Shown piece by piece: positions 1 to 53,506 of a DNA stretch of 56,262 nucleotides. Both the position numbers and the translations under genes were made by a program. The notes under the pieces are model-generated. The model had not been told where the DNA came from. It saw nothing but the letters and a program-made list of their open reading frames with translations, and did not search any database. The number at the start of each line of letters is the position of its first letter. The stretch's first letter is position 1. The stretch is from Clostridiaceae bacterium (GTDB lineage Bacteria; Bacillota; Clostridia; Acetivibrionales; DTU013): the NCBI GenBank assembly GCA_012730015.1, contig JAAYBT010000221.1:1-56262 (forward strand). Reading direction: 5' to 3'.

Positions 1-53
1 CGCAATGTATTGTGAAGCGGAACTCAAAACATGTAACATCGCAAAATGCCCAA

Positions 54-76
54 CACAGGGAAAACGTCACCCTGTG
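54..76 (-). repeat. REP-like hairpin CACAGGG-N9-CCCTGTG, 4 nt downstream of the rpoC stop codon; member of the TGACACAGGG repeat family and a possible terminator stem
   Basis: Plus strand has cacaggg (54-60), loop aaaacgtca, then ccctgtg (70-76). The minus strand reads GGCACAGGGTGACGTTTTCCCTGTGTTGGGCATTTTG. The same core occurs at 43589-43645 and 46214-46311. Confidence 0.6.
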
Positions 77-79
77 CCA

Positions 80-3000
80 TTACTCCGAAACCGTGCTTAT
101 TGTAATATCCTTATATCTGCTCATGCCCGTTCCAGCCGGAATCAGTTTACCAATTATCACGTTCTCCTTCAGTCCAACAAGTGGATCCACCTTGCCCTTG
201 ATAGCAGCTTCGGTCAATACTCTAGTGGTCTCCTGGAAGGAAGCCGCAGACAGGAATGATTCTGTAGCCAGTGAGGCTTTGGTAATGCCCAGCAAGGTGC
301 GTTTTCCCTTAGCTGGCCTCAAGCCCTCTGCTGTAACCCGTGCATTCTCTTCTTCGAAATCAAACATATCCACAAGTCCGCCGGGAAGCATGTTTGTATC
401 GCCTGCATCTTCAATCTTGACCTTCCTAAGCATTTGCCTGATGATTACTTCAATATGCTTATCATTAATATCAACGCCCTGCAATCTATACACTCTCTGA
501 ACTTCCTGGAGCAAGTAGGACTGAACTCCCTTAACGCCCTTGATCTTAAGAATGTCATGGGGATTGACTGAGCCTTCAGTAATTTCATCGCCCGCTTCTA
601 TTACATCATTGTCGGATACCTTCACTCTGGATCCGTAGGGGATCATATAGGTACGAGCCTCTCCGTCTTCAGTAGTTACAATGACTTCTCTCTTCTTCTT
701 TGTATCGCTGATTGTCACAGTACCTGCCACTTCTGAAATAACCGCAAGTCCCTTTGGCTTTCTGGCTTCAAAGAGCTCCTCAACACGCGGAAGACCCTGA
801 GTGATGTCCTCACCAGCAACACCGCCTGTGTGGAAGGTTCTCATAGTGAGCTGCGTACCCGGCTCACCAATGGACTGGGCAGCAATAATACCAACTGCTT
901 CTCCAACATTAACATCCTCATTTGTAGCAAGGTTTGCACCGTAGCACTTGGCGCATACACCATATTCAGAATGGCATGTAAGCATTGACCTGATTTTTAC
1001 CTTTTTAATGCCTGCCTTAACAACCCTTTCGGCCTCGTCATCAGTTATCTTCTTATCACCCTCTATGATGATTTCTCCGGTTTCAGGATTAACTATTGGC
1101 TCTACAGTATATCTGCCTACCAGTCTTTCCGCCAAACCTTCAATTATCTCGCTACCATCCTTGATGTCGCCTACTTCAATGCCCTTCCTGGTTCCGCAGT
1201 CCAGCTCTCTAACAATAACATCCTGACTAACATCAACCAGACGACGTGTAAGGTAACCCGAGTCAGCGGTTCTTAAGGCCGTATCTGCAAGACCTTTTCT
1301 TGCACCGTGAGTGGATATAAAGTATTCCAGAACGTTCAAGCCCTCACGGAAATTCGCTCTGATCGGAATCTCGAGCGTTCTTCCCGATGTATCAGCCATA
1401 AGTCCCCTCATACCTGACAGCTGCTTAATCTGACTGATGCTTCCTCTGGCCCCTGACTGGGACATCATAAATACAGGATTGAACTTATCCATTGAGTCCA
1501 ACAAAGCCTGGGTCAGGTTTTCACCGGTTTGCGTCCACGCCTGTATTACAGAGTTGTACCTTTCCTCCTCGGAAATAAGTCCTCTCTTGTACATCTTGGT
1601 GATGTTGTCAATTTTCTGTTCAGTCTCATCAATATAGGTCTTCTTTACACCAGGGATAATCATATCCGAAACGCTTACTGTGATGGCGCCCTTGGTCGAA
1701 TAGTTGAAGCCCAGGTCCTTGATTTTATCAAGTACAATAGCAGTGTGTGTTGTGCCATGCACCTTGATACATCTATCAATAATCTTTCCAAGCTCCTTCT
1801 TAGTAACCAAGCTGGATATCTCCAAATCAAATTGCTTCTCGGGATCTGTTCTATCGACAAAGCCCAAATCCTGAGGTATCGCATCGTTAAACAACAGTTT
1901 CCCAACAGTTGCATCAATAATCTTCGATTGAGGTTTGCCATCAATGGTCTTGGTAACTTTGATGTGTATCAGCGCGTGAAGCCCCACATAACCGTTCTCA
2001 TAAGCCATTACAGCCTCATTCAGAGACCCAAATATCTTGCCCTCACCAGGCTCACCCTCTCGGTCAATTGTGAGATAGTAGCAGCCCAGTACCATGTCCT
2101 GTGTCGGTACAGTAATAGGCTTCCCATCCTTCGGAGCAAGCAAATTGTTTGCAGAGAGCATCAAAAATCTGGCTTCCGCCTGTGCCTCTGCCGACAGCGG
2201 TACGTGAACAGCCATCTGGTCACCATCAAAGTCAGCATTATATGCGGTACACACCAGAGGATGAAGCTTCAATGCCTTACCCTCGACCAGTACAGGCTCA
2301 AAAGCCTGAATTCCTAGTCTGTGGAGCGTAGGTGCACGGTTTAATAGAACCGGGTGCTCCTTGATAACTTCCTCTAAAACATCCCAAACCTCAGGCTTGA
2401 CTCTTTCCACCATTCTCTTGGCACTCTTAATGTTATGCGCCAAGCCGTCATTTACAAGCTTCTTCATCACAAAGGGCTTGAACAGCTCCAGTGCCATTTC
2501 CTTAGGAAGACCACACTGGAATATTTTCAACTCCGGTCCCACAACAATTACAGATCGTCCGGAATAGTCAACACGTTTTCCCAGCAAATTTTGTCGGAAA
2601 CGTCCCTGCTTGCCTTTAAGCATATCTGAAAGCGACTTAAGAGGCCTGTTTCCAGGACCCGTTACAGGTCTTCCTCTCCTACCATTATCTATAAGAGCGT
2701 CTACAGCTTCCTGCAGCATTCTCTTCTCATTTCTTACGATAATATCAGGAGCACCCAAATCCAACAATCTCTTAAGACGGTTATTTCTGTTAATTACGCG
2801 CCTGTAGAGGTCATTAAGATCCGAGGTAGCAAATCTGCCACCATCCAGCTGCACCATAGGACGCAGCTCGGGCGGAATAACCGGTACCACGTCCAGAATC
2901 ATCCACTCAGGCATATTCCCTGAAAGTCTGAAGGCCTCTACCACCTCAAGCCTCTTTATAATCCTAATGCGCTTTTGCCCTGTAGCATCCTCGAGCTCGG

Positions 3001-3577
3001 CTCTCAGTTCCTTAGACTGCTTTTCCAGATCAATTTCCATCAGCAGCTCTCTTACAGCCTCTGCGCCCATACCGGCTTTAAAGCTATATCCGAACTTATC
3101 TACACTATCCCTGTACTCCTTCTCGGTCATGATCTGCTTCTTTGAAAGAGGCGTCTGTCCGGGATCAATAATGACATAGGAGGCAAAATACAGTATCTTC
3201 TCAAGTGCCCTCGGGGACATATCAAGTATAAGACCCATCCTACTGGGGATACCTTTGAAATACCATATGTGAGACACAGGGGCAGCCAGTTCAATATGGC
3301 CCATACGCTCTCGTCTTACCTTGGAGCGTGTTACTTCAACGCCGCATCTGTCACAAACGATACCTTTATATCTAATTCTTTTATACTTGCCGCAATGGCA
3401 TTCCCAGTCCTTTTGAGGTCCAAAGATCCTCTCGCAGAAAAGGCCGTCCCGTTCGGGCTTCAAGGTTCTGTAGTTAATTGTTTCAGGCTTCTTAACCTCT
3501 CCCCTTGACCATTCTCTGATTTTCTCCGGGGAAGCCAAACCAATTTTAATAGCATCAAAATTATTCATTTCAAACAT
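80..3577 (-). CDS. rpoC: DNA-directed RNA polymerase subunit beta'
   Basis: The ORF has the catalytic [15 protein letters not shown] motif and the N-terminal Zn finger [14 protein letters not shown]. The start is set to ATG 3577, 10 nt after the GGAGGGAG SD, because the GTG at 3583 abuts the SD. This gives [23 protein letters not shown]. Confidence 0.98.
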
Positions 3578-3592
3578 GGCCACATCTCCCTC

Positions 3593-43588: not shown

Positions 43589-43645
43589 GTGACACAGGGA
43601 TGGCACAACAAAAACGCCTCCTGTGTCATCACCCCCTGTGTCATG
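43589..43645 (-). repeat. REP-like palindromic repeat (TGACACAGGG family), intergenic copy
   Basis: GTGACACAGGGA-N16-CCTCCTGTGTCA-TCAC-CCCCTGTGTCATG: a hairpin plus an extra half-site, 21 nt upstream of the DMT start codon. Confidence 0.7.
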
Positions 43646-45438: not shown

Positions 45439-45784
<346 letters not shown>

Positions 45785-45914: not shown

Positions 45915-46676
45915 TTACTTCCTCTTGCCTAATTCTGCAAAAATATCATCGAGGGTTAGGCTCCTTTCAGCTAAGAGCACCATGATATGATATAGCAAAT
46001 CAGCTATTTCCGAGCTTATCTCTTCTCTGTCACCATTTTTCGAAGCAATCACAACCTCGCAAGCCTCTTCACCAATTTTCTTGAGGATCTTATCTAATCC
46101 CTTTGTGAAAAGATAATTGGTGTAGGAGCCTTCCTTCGGGTGTACCCTCCTGTCAGAGATAATATCAAATACCTCTCCAAGTACTTCAGCACCGACAACC
46201 TGCTCAGGCTCCATGACACAGGGAGACGTTTCAATGACACAGGGGAGCGTTTCCCTTGTATCACTATCCTCAGTGTCTTGTGACACAAGGGAAGCGTCCC
46301 CCTGTGTCATATCCTCCTGCGCCACCGTATTGGCGCCAGTCCTCAGCTCGTCAGCTTCCAGCCTGGTAAAAAAGCAGGACCTGTGGCCGGTGTGGCAAGC
46401 GGCACCAGTCTGCTCTACCTTGAGAAGCAGCGTATCACTGTCGCAGTCAATACTGATAGATCTTACCTTTTGAATGTGTCCCGAGGTCTCTCCCTTTAGC
46501 CATAGCTTCTGACGACTCCTGCTGAAATAATGGGCCTTCCCGGTTTCGATGGTCTTTTTTAGAGATTCCTCATTCATATATGCCAGCATCAGTACTTCAT
46601 CAGTTCTGATATCCTGGGTGACGGCCGGTATCAAGCCATCTGCATTGTACTTTACTATTTCAAGTATGTTTGGCAT
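45915..46676 (-). CDS. hisI: Bifunctional phosphoribosyl-AMP cyclohydrolase / phosphoribosyl-ATP pyrophosphatase, with an expanded inter-domain linker
   Basis: The HisI domain (..[34 protein letters not shown]) and the HisE domain (SYTNYLF..GEEACEV..ADLLYH) are separated by a linker of about 55 aa that contains a palindromic repeat (46214-46311). Confidence 0.93.
46214..46311 (-). repeat. REP-like palindromic repeat (TGACACAGGG family) inserted in-frame within hisIE
   Basis: The 30-nt arms 46236-46265 and 46281-46310 are complementary at 26 of 30 positions around a 15-nt loop. An extra partial unit lies at 46214-46234. The element translates as [35 protein letters not shown]. Confidence 0.8.
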
Positions 46677-46677
46677 T

Positions 46678-47442
46678 TTATATCCTCACTTCAATTCCAT
46701 TATCTTTCAAATACGTCTTCAATTCGCTTATCTCAATTTGTCGGAAGTGGAAGAGGGACGCCGCAAGAACCGCATCAGCCTTCCCGACGGTCAGTGCATC
46801 ATAAAAATGCTCCATGGCACCTGCTCCCCCCGAAGCTACAACAGGTATCTTCACGCTTTCAGATACAGCCCTTGTCAATTCAAGGTCATAGCCATTTTTT
46901 GTACCATCACAGTCCATGCTTGTAAGGAGTATTTCCCCTGCACCCAGCTTTTCTGTCTCCACTGCCCATTCTATAGCGTCTATTCCCGTGTTGGTATTCC
47001 CACCATTAATATAAACATCCCAACCGCTTCCATCAGCTCGCTTTTTCGCGTCTATGGCAGCCACTACACAGCCGCTCCCAAATCGCTGTGCCGCCTCTGA
47101 TATCAGCTCGGGTCTTTTTATAGCTGCAGAGTTAACTGAAACCTTATCCGCCCCTGCCTCCAATATTTTACCGAAATCATCGACGGTTCTTACTCCTCCT
47201 CCGACGGTAAAGGGTATTGAAACCTGGCTGGCTACACTCTTCAGCACATCAACCATAATATTACGCTCATCGGTGGTCGCCGTAATATCAAGAAAGACCA
47301 ATTCATCCGCACCCGCTTTATCATAAAAAGCCGCTATCTCGGCCGGGTCACCGGCATCCTTAAAATTAACGAAGTTCACACCCTTGACTACTCTCCCTCC
47401 CCGAATATCCAGACAGGGAATAATTCTTTTTAGCTTCTTCAT
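46678..47442 (-). CDS. hisF: Imidazole glycerol phosphate synthase, cyclase subunit
   Basis: 254 aa, (beta/alpha)8 HisF pattern: [19 protein letters not shown] and SGGAG. Confidence 0.96.
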
Positions 47443-47510
47443 GCACTCACCTCTTCACGCAAATCAGCATTTCAATAGCAGTACTACGGTGAATACTGCT
47501 CCAAAGCATT

Positions 47511-48224
47511 CTATTTAGCTGCCGCTATCGCTTCACGAAGGTCAATATCGCCTGTATAAAGCGCCCTGCCAACGATAGCTCCACCAACGCCTATGTTTTT
47601 CAAATTCTTTATGTCCTCAAGGCTTGTTACGCCGCCGGAAGCTATTACCTCTATGTCAACAGCCTTCACCATTTCCTCCATGGCCTTGAGATTTGGGCCT
47701 TTGAGCATTCCATCCCGGGAAATATCAGTGTAGATTATCACCTTGGCACCGATATCCTCCATCTTTTTCGCAAAGCCCAGCGCGGTAAAGGAGCTTGTTT
47801 TTGCCCATCCTTCGATGGCCACCATTCCGTCCCGGGCGTCTATGGCAATGGCAAGATTCATGCCAAAGCTTTGAACGGCCTTCTTAACCAGCTCCTGGCT
47901 GTTCACAGCAGAGGTTCCAAGAATAATCCTCTCAATCCCTTTACAAAGGACAATCTCCATAGTTTCAATTGTACGGATACCACCACCCAATTGGATGGGT
48001 ATTCCCACTGTTACAGCCATTTCACTTATAACCGCTATGTTCTGCGGCTCTCCGAGTCTGGCACCATCCAGATCGATTACATGCAAGTATTCCGCTCCCA
48101 GCTGATCAAACTTCTTTGCCATCTCCACAGGATAATCGGAATAGACGGTCTCATCATTAAACTTTCCCTGGCTTAGCCTGACACACCTGCCGTCCTTCAC
48201 ATCAATTGCGGGATAAATAATCAT
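47511..48224 (-). CDS. hisA: ProFAR isomerase (1-(5-phosphoribosyl)-5-[(5-phosphoribosylamino)methylideneamino]imidazole-4-carboxamide isomerase)
   Basis: Contains IIYPAIDVKDGRCVRL and GGGIRT. The start is moved to ATG 48224, behind the SD AAAGGAGTG. Confidence 0.94.
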   Translation of the reverse strand: MIIYPAIDVKDGRCVRLSQGKFNDETVYSDYPVEMAKKFDQLGAEYLHVIDLDGARLGEPQNIAVISEMAVTVGIPIQLGGGIRTIETMEIVLCKGIERIILGTSAVNSQELVKKAVQSFGMNLAIAIDARDGMVAIEGWAKTSSFTALGFAKKMEDIGAKVIIYTDISRDGMLKGPNLKAMEEMVKAVDIEVIASGGVTSLEDIKNLKNIGVGGAIVGRALYTGDIDLREAIAAAK

Positions 48225-48272
48225 TTCCTTCACTCCTTTATTCCAACCGATTCCCGGTTATCTTTCGTTTGC

Positions 48273-48860
48273 CTAAAGCATACCCTTGGTTGACAAAACT
48301 CCCTTGATTCTTTCATCGCTGCGGGTTGCCTCATCAAGCGCCCTGCCGAATGCTTTGAACACTGCTTCGGCAATGTGGTGATTATTGCTTCCGTACATCA
48401 CATTAATATGTACATTCATACCAGCATTTACTGATACAGCCCTGAAAAACTCCTCCACAAGCTCCGTATCCATATCCCCTACCCGCTCATTAGTGTATTG
48501 GACGTTGAAAACCAAATAGGGGCGCCCTCCAAGATCCACACAAACCATAGCAAGAGCCTCATCCATCGGTACATAAGCTGTTCCGTATCTTCTTATGGAT
48601 TTTTTGTCACCCAGAGCCTGCTTTATAGCCTGCCCAAGCACTATGCCTATATCCTCTACCGTGTGATGAGCATCCACCTGGAGGTCTCCCCTAGCCTTTA
48701 TCTCCAAATCGAGTAATCCATGCTTTGAAAACAGCGTTAGCATGTGATCCAGGAAGCCAACACCCGAGTCGATAAGGGAGTTACCTTCGCCATCGATATT
48801 CAGCTTCATCGTAATGTCGGTTTCAGCCGTTTTCCTGCTCAATTCAGCACTTCTGGACAT
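48273..48860 (-). CDS. hisB: Imidazoleglycerol-phosphate dehydratase
   Basis: 195 aa, monofunctional IGPD with [11 protein letters not shown] and [17 protein letters not shown]. Confidence 0.96.
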
Positions 48861-48925
48861 ATTGCACCTCCGTGTATTATTGATCCTGGTAATTGCTTTT
48901 TATTTAGTACTAATTACCACCCGTA

Positions 48926-48934
48926 ATTATAGCA
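48926..48934 (-). promoter_or_regulatory. Extended -10 element TGCTATAAT: candidate internal promoter for hisBAF-IE
   Basis: The minus strand reads cacatTTGCTATAATtacgg, within the 214-bp ORF-free hisC-hisB spacer. There is no good -35. Confidence 0.4.
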
Positions 48935-49074
48935 AATGTGTGTACTACAAATCCACACTATATTGAAATTTTTGCTATTCAGTTCCCCTTCTATCGGTAA
49001 GCGACAGGGCCACTTGCCAGGTGTCACTTGCTAGATGGGGTAACTAAATAGCCTCAAATTACCTGCAATGCTTG

Positions 49075-50136
49075 TTATTCACTCAAAATGCTGTCTAGTG
49101 CGGCTAATACTGCTGCCATTTCTTCATCTGTTCCAATGCTTATTCGCAGGTTGTTCTCTATCAGGGGCATCTTGAAATGCCGCACTAATATGCCGCGTTC
49201 CCGAAGCTGAGTGAATATCCTTTCCCCAGGCACGCTTTTATGCGCGGCAAATAGGAAATTGGCCGCCGAATCAGTTACGGTAAAATTCCTCCTGCGAAGC
49301 TCTCCGGCGAATACTTCACGGGTCTTAATGACCTTTTCTGTGGTCCGTCTGTAATATTCCTTGTCCCTTAGTGCCGCCGTTCCGGCTATAATGGCCAGCC
49401 TGTCTAGTGTATAGGAATTGAAGGAATTCTTCACGCTTTCCAGTGCGCAAATCAACTCTTTGTCGCCAAACGCAAGGCCAATTCTCATTCCGGCCAATGC
49501 ACGGGACTTGGAAAAGGTCTGTATCACCAGCAGATTTGGATATTCGTCAATCAGGCCCAGTGCTGACTCTCCACCATAATCGATATATGCCTCGTCAACA
49601 ATCACTACAGTATCCGGATTGCCTGCAAGCACATCACGAATAGCCGAAAGGGGCAAGGCCTTACCTGTCGGCGCGTTGGGATTTGCCAAAATAATACCCC
49701 CGCTGCTGTTCATGAGCTGATCGGAGGGTATATTGAATGTACTATCCAGCGGAGTGGTAACATAGTCAAGCCTGAAAAGCGATGCATACACCGGGTAGAA
49801 GGAATATGTAATATTGGGAAAGACAATCGTCTTTCCGGGATTGAAGAAGGCCATAAAAGAAAACGCCAGGACCTCATCGGAGCCGTTGCCGGCAAATATC
49901 TGATCCTTGCTCACCCCATAGCTCTCTGCAGCAGCGCTGATAAGCATGTCACAGGTTGGATCGGGATAAAGCCTGAGGCTGTCATCCACTGCAGCCCTAG
50001 TTGCTTCCAGTACCCTCGGCGACGGGCCGTAGGGGTTTTCATTAGTATTTAGCTTAATATATTTTTTATCCCTGGGCTGTTCACCCGGAACATATGGCTC
50101 CAGGCTCTGTGCCAGGCCACTCCAGTATTTGTTCAT
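49075..50136 (-). CDS. hisC: Histidinol-phosphate aminotransferase
   Basis: 353 aa, class-II aminotransferase with PLP-lysine region TFSKSRALAGMRIG and LNTNENPYGPSP. Confidence 0.94.
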   Translation of the reverse strand: MNKYWSGLAQSLEPYVPGEQPRDKKYIKLNTNENPYGPSPRVLEATRAAVDDSLRLYPDPTCDMLISAAAESYGVSKDQIFAGNGSDEVLAFSFMAFFNPGKTIVFPNITYSFYPVYASLFRLDYVTTPLDSTFNIPSDQLMNSSGGIILANPNAPTGKALPLSAIRDVLAGNPDTVVIVDEAYIDYGGESALGLIDEYPNLLVIQTFSKSRALAGMRIGLAFGDKELICALESVKNSFNSYTLDRLAIIAGTAALRDKEYYRRTTEKVIKTREVFAGELRRRNFTVTDSAANFLFAAHKSVPGERIFTQLRERGILVRHFKMPLIENNLRISIGTDEEMAAVLAALDSILSE

Positions 50137-50251
50137 GAAAACTATCTCCTAAATCGTCCTTATTTTTCTTCGCTTCGCACTCTTTTTTATATCATGTGCT
50201 TCGAGCTCCTTGCATTCCGCTTTCGCTTATCGCGACTATTCAGTCAGCCTT

Positions 50252-51544
50252 TTACCCAAAGCGAACCTTTATGGCATTTGCATGTCCGTCCAGGCTCTCA
50301 TACTCCGCAAATCGAACAACGTCCTCGCTGACCTTCTCCAGCGCCTTTCTTGTGTATGAAATGACACTGGATTTCTTCATATAGTCAGCCACAGTCAAGG
50401 GAGAGAAGAAGCGAGCGGTACCACCGGTGGGCAAAACATGGTTTGGACCTGCAAAATAATCACCCAGCGGCTCCGGCGACCAGTGTCCCAGAAAAATGGC
50501 GCCGGCATTTCTTACATATGCAAGGCGGCTGAATGGTTCCTCAATGCACAGCTCCAAATGCTCGGGAGCAATGCGGTTTACTATATCCATAGCCTCATCA
50601 AGATCGTTAACTATAACAGCCGCGCCATAATCGGCAAGGGACTTCTCCAGAATGCTTTTCCTGGGTAGCCTTGCAGCCTGTTTTTCAATTTCACCGACAA
50701 CCTCCTCCGCCAGTTTTTGTGAAGGGGTGACCAGTATAGAAGCCGAAAGGATATCATGCTCTGCCTGGGAAAGCAAATCCGCGGCTACATATGCCGGATT
50801 AGCAGAATCATCGGCCACAACCGTTATTTCACTTGGCCCTGCGAACATATCAATGTCGCAATACCCATACACAAGCCTTTTAGCAGTTGATACATAGATA
50901 TTTCCCGGGCCGAAAATCTTATCAACCCTCGGTACTGTCTGCGTTCCAAAAACCATTGCCGCAACAGCCTGCGCACCACCCATTTTATATATCTCGGTTA
51001 CACCTGCCTCCTGCGCCGCCACAAGCACGCCGGGATCTATACTTCCGTCCTTCCCGGGAGGAGTAGCCATGATAATTCTTTCCACTCCGGCCACCTTCGC
51101 AGGCAGCCCATTCATCAGAACCGTGGATGTCAGAACTGCCGTTCCACCGGGTACATAAATCCCTACTATCTCAAGAGGCCTGTATAGCTGCCCCAGCAAA
51201 ACACCATCGTCCTGTGTCGAAAACCATGAATTCTCCTTTTGCTTCTCGTGGAAGGACTCAATATTTGCCTTGGATCTCCTAATCACCTCAAGCATCTCCG
51301 GGTCCAAAAGGTCGTAGGCCTCCTTCATTTCCTGCTCTGAAACCCTCATGGATGCAGCATCCAGCTCAACCCTGTCGAAGCGTCTGGTATACTCCAGCAG
51401 TGCCTCGTCGCCACGGGCTCTGACACTTGAAAGGATTTCATCCACAACCCTGACTACATCCTCCTTGCCGACCCTGTCCCTGCTGATCAGCCTGTCAAAC
51501 AAGCTGTTATCCTTATCCCTGCGCATATCAATCATCTTTATCAT
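50252..51544 (-). CDS. hisD: Histidinol dehydrogenase
   Basis: 430 aa with LLSQAEHD and GDYFAGPNHVLPT. Confidence 0.96.
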   Translation of the reverse strand: MIKMIDMRRDKDNSLFDRLISRDRVGKEDVVRVVDEILSSVRARGDEALLEYTRRFDRVELDAASMRVSEQEMKEAYDLLDPEMLEVIRRSKANIESFHEKQKENSWFSTQDDGVLLGQLYRPLEIVGIYVPGGTAVLTSTVLMNGLPAKVAGVERIIMATPPGKDGSIDPGVLVAAQEAGVTEIYKMGGAQAVAAMVFGTQTVPRVDKIFGPGNIYVSTAKRLVYGYCDIDMFAGPSEITVVADDSANPAYVAADLLSQAEHDILSASILVTPSQKLAEEVVGEIEKQAARLPRKSILEKSLADYGAAVIVNDLDEAMDIVNRIAPEHLELCIEEPFSRLAYVRNAGAIFLGHWSPEPLGDYFAGPNHVLPTGGTARFFSPLTVADYMKKSSVISYTRKALEKVSEDVVRFAEYESLDGHANAIKVRFG

Positions 51545-51611
51545 AAAATCCTACCTTCCTTTTTTAGCTTGATTCCACAATTCATGGTTTCCTACATAGA
51601 CAAATTCTTCC

Positions 51612-52253
51612 TTACAGCTGCTTCCTGAGTCCATCTATGATTCTATTCACCCGTTCACTTTCCATTTTCATGCTGACTCTGTTCACCACAAGTCTGGCGC
51701 TAATATCGGCGATGGTATCGAGCACCACAAGCCCATTATCCCTTAGTGTCCTCCCGCTTTCCACCAAATCCACAATCACCTCTGAAAGCCCCACCAGAGG
51801 AGCAAGCTCCACCGATCCGCTTAACTTTATTACCTCTATGGACTCACGACGATTGTGCTCAAAATATTCTCTTGCAATGCGGGGATACTTTGTTCCAACC
51901 CTCTTGTTGTTAAGGCTGTCAAGCTTGCCGGCCAATTCGGCAGGCCCTGCAACTACCATCCTGCAGGCCGCAAACCCCAGATTGAGAACCTCATGCAAAT
52001 TCCTTCCCTCTTCAAGAAGAGTATCCTTCCCTACAACTCCCATATCAGCCGCACCATACTCCACATATGTGGGTACATCGGCGGGCTTTACAAGGAAGAA
52101 TCTGATCCTGCTTTTCTCATCCGTAAAAATCAGTTTACGGGACTCATCGCGGTATTCCGAACAGTCTATCCCGATCTTCTCCAACATCTCTATAGACAAT
52201 TCGGCCAGCCTTCCTTTGGATAACGCTATTGTCAGATATCTCAATCCACTCAC
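51612..52253 (-). CDS. hisG: ATP phosphoribosyltransferase, short form
   Basis: 213 aa (HisG-S type) with [10 protein letters not shown] and [10 protein letters not shown]. There is a 4-nt overlap with hisZ. Confidence 0.94.
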
Positions 52254-53506
52254 CTCTTCAATAGTTCACTAATTTTTACACTGGCAACCTCGCCTGACTG
52301 TATATAATGTATTTCTACCGTATCCTCATCAATGATGCTAATTACGCCTCCGATATTTCTGTCAAGAGCATAGCTTTTAGCCTCATCTATGCTGCTGTTT
52401 GCTATGTCCATCTCCACAACAATGCCCTGCTTTCGCAGCTCCTCACACAGCTCAAAAGCCGTCCTTCTGCCTGCATCCCCATAGCATATGAAACTGTCGA
52501 CCTCCGGGCTCTCTGCCTCAATTTTCTGTCTTTGAAGTGCCTTCATAATCATATTGACACCCAGCGAGAAGCCTGTTGCGGGACAATCCATGCCGAACTC
52601 TCCCAAAAGCCTGTCATACCTTCCGCCTGTAAGTATAGGGAACCCAACCCCATAGGTAAAGCCCCTGAAAATTATGCCGGTATCATAGGACAATTCCCTC
52701 AGCATTCCAAGATCGACCGATACATACTTTCCAAAGCCATAGTCCTCAAGTATTTTCAATACCTGGCGAATGTTTTCAAGTGCTTGCCTGGATCTTCTGC
52801 TAAGTGGCTTCGACTCAACCCTTTCGATTACATCGGCAGACCCAAAGTATCCGGGCAAATCGGATATCAATTCCTTTAAATCCTCACCTATTTCGCACCT
52901 TTTCAAGAACTCCTCAAGGCCTACATAATCCTTGCGATCAATCAGCTTGCGCACCTCGGTGACATCTTCCTCGGCCAGACCGGTTTCTTCCATCAATCCA
53001 TTAAAAAACTCCACCTGCCCTATATCCACCTGGAAGCTTTCCAAGCCGGCAGCTTTAAGCGCCTTTATCGCAACGGCTATTACCTCCGCATCCGATTCGG
53101 GCGTATTGATGCCCAGTACCTCGATCCCCGCCTGGGTAAACTCATTTTGCTTACCTCCGCCGTAATCATCATACCTGAACACATTTCCCACATACGAAAC
53201 TCGCAGGGGGTATCTCGCCTCCCTGTACTTGGTTGCTGATATCCTGGCAATGGGAATAGTGATGTCAGGCCTAAGAACCAGTATCCTGCCCTGCTGGTCA
53301 AAGAACTTGAACATGTTTTCCTGAGGCATGGCAGCTTCATCAGATGCAAAAACATCAAAAAACTCAATAGTCGGAGACTCTACCTCACGAAAGCCGCAGC
53401 TTCTAAACAACGACCTAAACTTTTGCTCCAAACCTCTTTTTAGATAACAGTCCTCAAACAGGATATCCTGAACTCCATCTGCCGTATAGATTTTCCATTT
53501 GGACAT
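52250..53506 (-). CDS. hisZ: ATP phosphoribosyltransferase regulatory subunit (HisRS paralogue)
   Basis: 418 aa, class-II aaRS-like core ([10 protein letters not shown].., [10 protein letters not shown]) without tRNA-synthetase context. It sits upstream of a short-form hisG. Confidence 0.9.

Follow-up and report, generated by a model that had tools for sequence, protein, structure and literature searches.

The hisIE gene of a Clostridiaceae bacterium carries, between the parts that code for its two domains, a palindromic DNA element belonging to a dispersed repeat family. At least five species-level lineages of uncultured Clostridia probably descend from an ancestor whose hisIE received a REP doublet (REPIN-like) in its interdomain linker; a full-length HisIE would have continued to be made, and the palindrome has been maintained since. 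The window referred to below is the whole stretch of DNA that was analysed (56,262 nucleotides, contig JAAYBT010000221.1).

In the window, hisIE is located on the minus strand (45915..46676) and codes for 253 aa according to the list of open reading frames, with Pfam and NCBIfam matches above the curated cut-offs. The HisI (PRA-CH) domain takes up aa 30-103 (46368..46589, minus; Pfam PF01502, 131.5 bits, E = 9.6e-39) and the HisE (PRA-PH) domain aa 169-252 (45921..46172, minus; Pfam PF01503, 81.4 bits, E = 6.3e-23). The HisIE model NF002747 of NCBIfam (208 positions) gives 273.6 bits against a cut-off of 187, in two separate matching stretches. By these profile matches, the product is predicted to be a bifunctional HisIE that combines PRA-CH and PRA-PH in a single polypeptide, both domains being intact.

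hisIE is the final gene of the his operon and is followed by groES and groEL. This synteny (his operon, hisIE, groES, groEL) is kept in the loci of the relatives, including L001, L002 and L004. The operon order in the window (46678-53506) and in L001, L002 and L006 is hisZ/S-like, hisG, hisD, hisC, hisB, hisA, hisF, hisIE; no hisH was seen within the his cluster of these regions. The purC gene (SAICAR synthase) is placed between hisB and hisA in three relatives, and not in the window or in L004. A perfect CIRCE operator (TTAGCACTC-N9-GAGTGCTAA) is located upstream of groES at 45758-45784 of the window. The groES reading frame as listed has 109 aa (45439..45768); its true start is probably a later ATG, giving 95 aa and matching the relatives.

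The aligned blocks of the two domains are separated by 65 residues in the window HisIE versus 11 in the Shigella HisIE 6J2L (202 aa). In the AlphaFold model, based on 33 homologues, pLDDT is mostly >87 in the HisI domain and >90 in the HisE domain, and it is <50 across aa 125-157, the element-coded residues being 123-155. The element-coded segment is modelled as disordered.

The element consists of two inverted units with a spacer between them and a half unit. Unit A (TGACACAGGGGGACGCTTCCCTTGTGTCA; 46281..46309, minus), which is the 5' unit on the mRNA, was found by the repeat search and the unit HMM (32.5 bits, E = 8.6e-9); it reads (M)TQGDASLVS and has 2 mismatches relative to the family consensus. 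The spacer of 17 nt (46264..46280, minus) forms the loop of the long hairpin and reads QDTEDS; its sequence is specific to this locus and changes at close to the neutral rate. Unit B (46235..46263, plus; repeat search, unit HMM 28.2 bits) is inverted relative to unit A. Read from the minus strand in another frame of the unit, it gives DTRETLPCV, with 4 mismatches relative to the consensus. The half unit (46214..46232, plus; unit HMM 17.8 bits, E = 3.9e-4) comprises the left arm and the loop, is oriented like unit B and reads ETSPCV. It is present in the window only and not in the orthologues.

The repeat search gives inverted arms at 46234-46264 and 46280-46310 (31 nt, 87% complementary, 15 nt between them) and a partial third copy at 46214, which agrees within 1-2 nt with the arms, loop and third partial unit of the preliminary description. 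Each unit also holds a small inner hairpin, a single unit being 29 nt long with a stem of 10 bp and a loop of 9 nt. The mRNA-sense sequence of 46195-46330 folds at -74.3 kcal/mol (z = -7.9), none of 200 dinucleotide shuffles being as stable, and the hairpin proposed earlier for the last gene of the his operon is supported as a strong one. The terminator scan gave none at this hairpin, which has no U-tract after it. Of the three sense frames through the element, only that of the gene is free of stop codons, and its translation is the peptide described before. A protein search with the element peptide and its short flanks gave 18 word candidates, none of them at E <= 10; hence the peptide is uncommon among called proteins. 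An assembly artefact, considered in the preliminary description, is ruled out by finding the structure in five independent assemblies (NCBI, ENA, Logan).

The unit belongs to a family with the consensus TGACACAGGGGGACGTTTTCCTTGTGTCA, which was built from 20 matches (3 in the window, 6 in hisIE of the relatives and 11 in other contigs of the relatives). The matches carry 0-6 mismatches and score up to 37 bits with the unit HMM. The core TGACACAGGG (<=1 mismatch) occurs 10 times in the window versus 2.4 expected, and 0 of 100 shuffles reach 10. These core matches cluster at 53-79, 43590-43643 and 46214-46309, and the unit HMM finds only those three window sites, so that the two intergenic repeats previously reported to share the core were both recovered. 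The first of them (53..79, minus; unit HMM 26.5 bits) lies directly after the stop codon of an open reading frame of 1167 aa (80..3583, minus) and is orthologous to L017:1474-1502 of a related genome. The second is a composite copy made up of a degenerate unit and extra arms (43590..43643, minus), located between the groEL terminator and the next gene. It is missing from the orthologous groEL-downstream spacer in L001 (10840-10870) and L002 (12950-13050), and this difference is a signature of gain or loss. The filled and empty sites also differ in extra non-repeat bases, and no clean target-site duplication is readable there.

An exact-pattern scan (TGACACARGG-N5-12-CCYTGTGTCA) of one genome per species in 185,579 species gave 51 loci, our own estimate of the number expected by chance being a few tens. 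The genomes with the hisIE orthologues P0003 and P0005 each had three further contigs among the hits. Multi-copy loci were found in Syntrophomonas, Pelotomaculum, Thermacetogenium, Halanaerobiales and other Bacillota, with the loop conserved too. The layout seen in hisIE (a unit, a spacer of 12-18 nt and an inverted unit) recurs at L027:5506-5600, L050:6124-6199 and L023:2795-2870; in L027 the doublet is followed by a half unit, as in hisIE. Outside hisIE, most copies follow a stop codon or lie in spacers between housekeeping genes (window 53-79, L017, L019, L028, L033, L050). The window copy abuts the stop codon at 79-82, the L019 copy abuts carB (3118-3120), and the L033 copies flank fabF on both sides. 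At L050:6124-6126, the first TGA of the unit is itself the stop codon of an rsmE-like gene. Judging from translations inspected by eye, the reading frames next to the copies in L019, L023, L033 and L050 resemble housekeeping genes (carB, pheT, pgi, fabF, rsmE-like). The copy number in the sample is low: three sites in the 56 kb window and, by the unit HMM, no site other than hisIE in the roughly 62 kb of syntenic DNA sampled from relatives. Neither RAYT nor another transposase was seen in the DNA sampled.

A second in-frame case was found on a contig of a Bacteroidaceae MAG, where a unit at L029:2328-2356 (26/29 identical to the consensus) reads MTQGDGSPVS within an RluA-type pseudouridine synthase of 464 aa. 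RluA-type homologues that are 79-85% identical (Prevotella-type) are free of the unit and have VVEG-G-FLAAYSG. Another RluA-type homologue, P0161, has a different insert at the spot of the L029 unit, and P0167 has a GDGSFLFDSKETDYGQ insert elsewhere. A 29-nt unit that is near-identical, loop included, is present in L012, L019, L028, L031, L033, L040 and L053; for a single REP consensus, this distribution is unusually broad. The 29-nt unit may possibly represent a REP superfamily over several classes, perhaps two phyla, which time and again adds about 10 residues (MTQGD..VS / DT...PCV) to proteins. A search of Rfam gave only sub-threshold matches to miRNA precursors, i.e., generic long hairpins. 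A full-text search for the motif retrieved unrelated primer sequences only, and no description of the TGACACAGGGGGACGTTTTCCTTGTGTCA family was found in the literature on REPs in Clostridia or in the REP surveys consulted, which name no family from Firmicutes.

The hisIE copy is shared by other species. P0002, P0003 and P0004, from the group of orthologues 75-81% identical to the window HisIE, carry unit A, the spacer and unit B at the same position of hisIE, and P0005 keeps a single unit, the TQGD unit being absent. The spacers of the doublets are homologous to each other and locus-specific. The TQGD..LVS and DT...PCV segments are confined, among the 120 best homologues (55-81% identical), to the four closest ones (P0002-P0005, 75-81%). 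Since four other species-level lineages share the element, its insertion is ancient. The only closer relative from the metagenome scan, L058 (67% identity), has an unrelated linker; the scan gave no further element-bearing orthologue, so that the set for co-variation stays at four sequences.

The preliminary description had treated 253 aa as an unusual length. This is valid with respect to the E. coli-type enzyme (6J2L) and to most of the metagenome matches, which are short (about 198 aa), but not with respect to its own clade, in which all the 120 best homologues have 226-309 aa with a hypervariable linker. The extra length alone is therefore no evidence of insertion, linkers of the wider clade being equally long or longer. 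The excess had also been equated with the element, which in fact provides about 33 of roughly 54 extra residues in the window HisIE; in P0003 and P0004, it occupies most of the variable part of the linker. The comparison of linker lengths among orthologues, suggested earlier as a check, gives a mixed result: linkers of the same length do occur without the repeat, but they are not homologous to the window linker. No allele was found in which the site is empty and the linker otherwise homologous, and the nearest element-free relatives have unrelated linkers of equal or greater length; for this reason we infer the insertion event from family membership rather than from direct observation.

The long linkers are a trait of the clade, with another origin elsewhere, as judged from three that were checked at the DNA level (L138:1300-1560, L139:1300-1700, L140:1423-1557). 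All three contain tandem direct duplications, that of L140:1423-1557 being a repeat of 3 x 45 nt. An origin of other long linkers from decayed palindromes was considered and rejected, because L138-L140 hold direct repeats and one weak 13-nt inverted pair (L139). Such linkers bear on the idea that the hisIE element arose in place by local inverted and tandem duplication during the expansion of the clade linkers, its likeness to the intergenic repeats being secondary. Clade linkers do grow by local duplication, as L140 demonstrates, and the half unit of the window resembles a local duplication. However, the L138-L140 linkers lie outside the five-species subclade and have direct repeats only, apart from the weak pair in L139, and units A and B are 2 and 4 mismatches away from the consensus of many unrelated loci and of copies in distant taxa, with which they also share the loop and the doublet layout. 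An origin in place appears to be largely refuted by this family census and is considered very improbable.

Comparison of the species carrying the doublet indicates what has been conserved after its arrival. The arms are 69-82% identical between species, and in 6/6 pairs this exceeds the identity at fourfold-degenerate sites of the HisIE domains (51-68%; Fisher p 0.0003 to 0.3); the identity of the doublet spacer is about 50%. Variable arm columns at codon positions 1, 2 and 3 number 6/21, 10/21 and 11/20, so that there is no coding periodicity in the arms. In the flanking domains, codon positions 1+2 are 94-98% identical versus 59-72% at position 3. In the long A:B helix, 90% of cells are paired and 5 pairs have changed on both sides; the covariation score of this helix, computed on four sequences, was matched by 5 of 500 shuffles. 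No pair of the local unit hairpins has changed on both sides. Thus, the palindrome is preserved and not the peptide, as the arms surpass the fourfold sites, lack codon periodicity and contain five double-sided pair changes.

These data also weigh on the proposal that the peptide itself is selected, the Cys-containing ET(L/S)PCV and the TQGD..LVS acting as a functional linker, e.g., in metal binding or interaction. C and V of PCV are indeed invariant in the five orthologues, with P varying (PSCV in P0004). The PCV conservation follows from the conservation of the stem CCCTGTGTCA. Furthermore, arm substitutions show no codon periodicity, in contrast to the flanking domains, the segment is modelled as disordered, and P0005 does without the TQGD unit. 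Selection of the peptide is the least probable of the explanations considered.

The four doublets retain 27, 27, 27 and 20 Watson-Crick pairs out of 31, and a simple neutral-decay estimate predicts 17-21. The z values of the fold in the four doublet-bearing genes are -8.6, -8.8, -6.1 and -3.1. In the P0005 gene, which has z = -1.4, the significant fold is lost and the gene is intact; at least one lineage can therefore do without the hairpin. Mismatches on the sense strand comprise 11 G-U versus 5 A-C, a difference that is partly inherited and too weak to show an RNA-level constraint. Compensatory changes run away from the family consensus, which argues against overwriting by other copies. The upkeep of the palindrome may be due either to selection on an RNA/DNA hairpin or to conversion between the arms, which four sequences cannot separate.

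If selection is responsible, the doublet could have ceased to be a passenger and become a domesticated structured element tuning translation or processing of the his mRNA between HisI and HisE. A hairpin of 30-45 bp would then be kept for a role in cis inside the mRNA of the his operon. It could slow ribosomes between the domains, be a processing site for RNase III or another enzyme, or act on DNA. This regulatory role is rather unlikely as the leading explanation, even though the arms are conserved above the neutral level, the double-sided changes are confined to the long helix and the spacer varies freely. The hairpin was retained in four of the five lineages despite roughly 40-50% change at fourfold sites, and REPs have been reported to affect mRNA stability and translation (cited in PMC5581495). 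The role is opposed by P0005, whose gene is intact with one unit and the significant fold gone, and by the many relatives with unrelated linkers that have no such hairpin. There is no clear strand-specific G-U signal, neither a U-tract nor a terminator was found at the hairpin, and the comparison comprises four sequences only. Such tuning by a domesticated doublet is considered improbable.

The insertion of a REP doublet, which is the preferred explanation, would have proceeded from a family that is normally intergenic in anaerobic Bacillota. HisI and HisE are separate catalytic domains that are also known as separate proteins. A mobilising enzyme would presumably have delivered a doublet of two inverted 29-nt palindromic units with a short spacer, plus the half unit. 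The gene could survive this for two reasons: the element sits in the sole sense frame without a stop, and the linker segment would need no fixed structure, the clade tolerating linkers that differ by about 80 residues. The outcome would be a full-length HisIE with about 33 additional disordered residues. After insertion, the nucleic-acid palindrome would have been kept, and not the peptide, through hairpin selection or arm conversion. The element had initially been regarded as a tolerated insertion. This agrees with the intact gene and the disordered segment, but tolerance is not the whole of it, as the insertion is ancient and its palindrome has been maintained.

Most known in-frame insertions of REPs and RPEs come, to our knowledge, from Proteobacteria and Rickettsia. 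The hisIE case takes them into Clostridia by way of a family for which no description was found. It is unusually clean, being an insertion exactly into the disordered linker of a well-understood two-domain enzyme. As several species share the hisIE copy, its fate over time can be read directly, and a palindrome that outlasts neutral decay and has compensatory changes provides a small natural test of hairpin selection versus arm-to-arm conversion. Such units also account for odd Cys/Pro-rich inserts and for spurious short open reading frames when the genomes of anaerobes are annotated.

REPs and REPINs of E. coli and Pseudomonas are thought to be mobilised by RAYT (IS200/IS605-type tyrosine) transposases. 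REPs are defined as short (about 14-40 nt) stem-loop palindromes with a shared consensus and many dispersed, mostly extragenic copies (PMC12306157), and a REPIN is a REP doublet folding as a hairpin (PMC5581495). The TGACACAGGGGGACGTTTTCCTTGTGTCA family is similar to REPs in being a short imperfect palindrome with a common consensus, dispersed and mostly extragenic near the 3' ends of genes, and to REPINs in forming inverted doublets with a short spacer and one long hairpin. It differs from both in its host (Clostridia/Bacillota), its apparently low copy density, the lack of a RAYT in the DNA sampled and the intragenic position of the hisIE copy. In the GTAG/CGTC REP superfamilies, one end of the palindrome carries an unpaired tetranucleotide, GTAG or CGTC (PMC3733652). 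The TGACACAGGGGGACGTTTTCCTTGTGTCA unit has no such terminal tag; it ends with TGACAC...GTGTCA and contains CGTC only in the loop of the reverse orientation (AAAACGTCCCCC).

Bacterial MITEs such as Correia and ERIC resemble the hisIE element in being small and non-autonomous, with inverted hairpin-forming ends and some copies in frame in genes. Unlike MITEs, it has no definable target-site duplication, and a parent insertion sequence with matching ends is not known. With no target-site duplication, transposase or autonomous parent found, a REP doublet (REPIN-like) is a better label than MITE. The original assignment to a REP/MITE type therefore persists in its REP half, as the consensus and layout recur at L027, L050 and L023 and the 43590-43643 copy is missing in two relatives, and is not borne out in its MITE half.

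RPE-1 of Rickettsia is longer (about 100-150 bp) than the 29-nt unit, and RPEs live in an intracellular, reduced genome. RPEs are the classic intragenic case (PMC3733652). The hisIE element is like them a palindromic repeat placed in frame in housekeeping genes, where it adds a peptide and leaves the protein intact, and its family is intergenic as well. Host and repeat-family names differ, and the likeness is purely a functional one.

A close precedent is that of intragenic GTAG/CGTC REPs (Di Nocera et al. 2013, PMC3733652). Singletons and dimers of these REPs are found wholly within open reading frames that code for known proteins, with 20-30 aa added by dimers and 43-82 aa by clusters, and a neighbouring gene can take its stop codon from a REP end. 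Stop-codon donation was also found in the TGACACAGGGGGACGTTTTCCTTGTGTCA family, at L050. The survey of Di Nocera et al. (2013) lists no Firmicutes families and has no report of long-term retention with compensatory changes (PMC3733652). Compared with those intragenic REPs, the target in hisIE is the interdomain linker of HisIE, and the added value of the case is that it is dated, covers several species and has the hairpin retained in four of the five genes.
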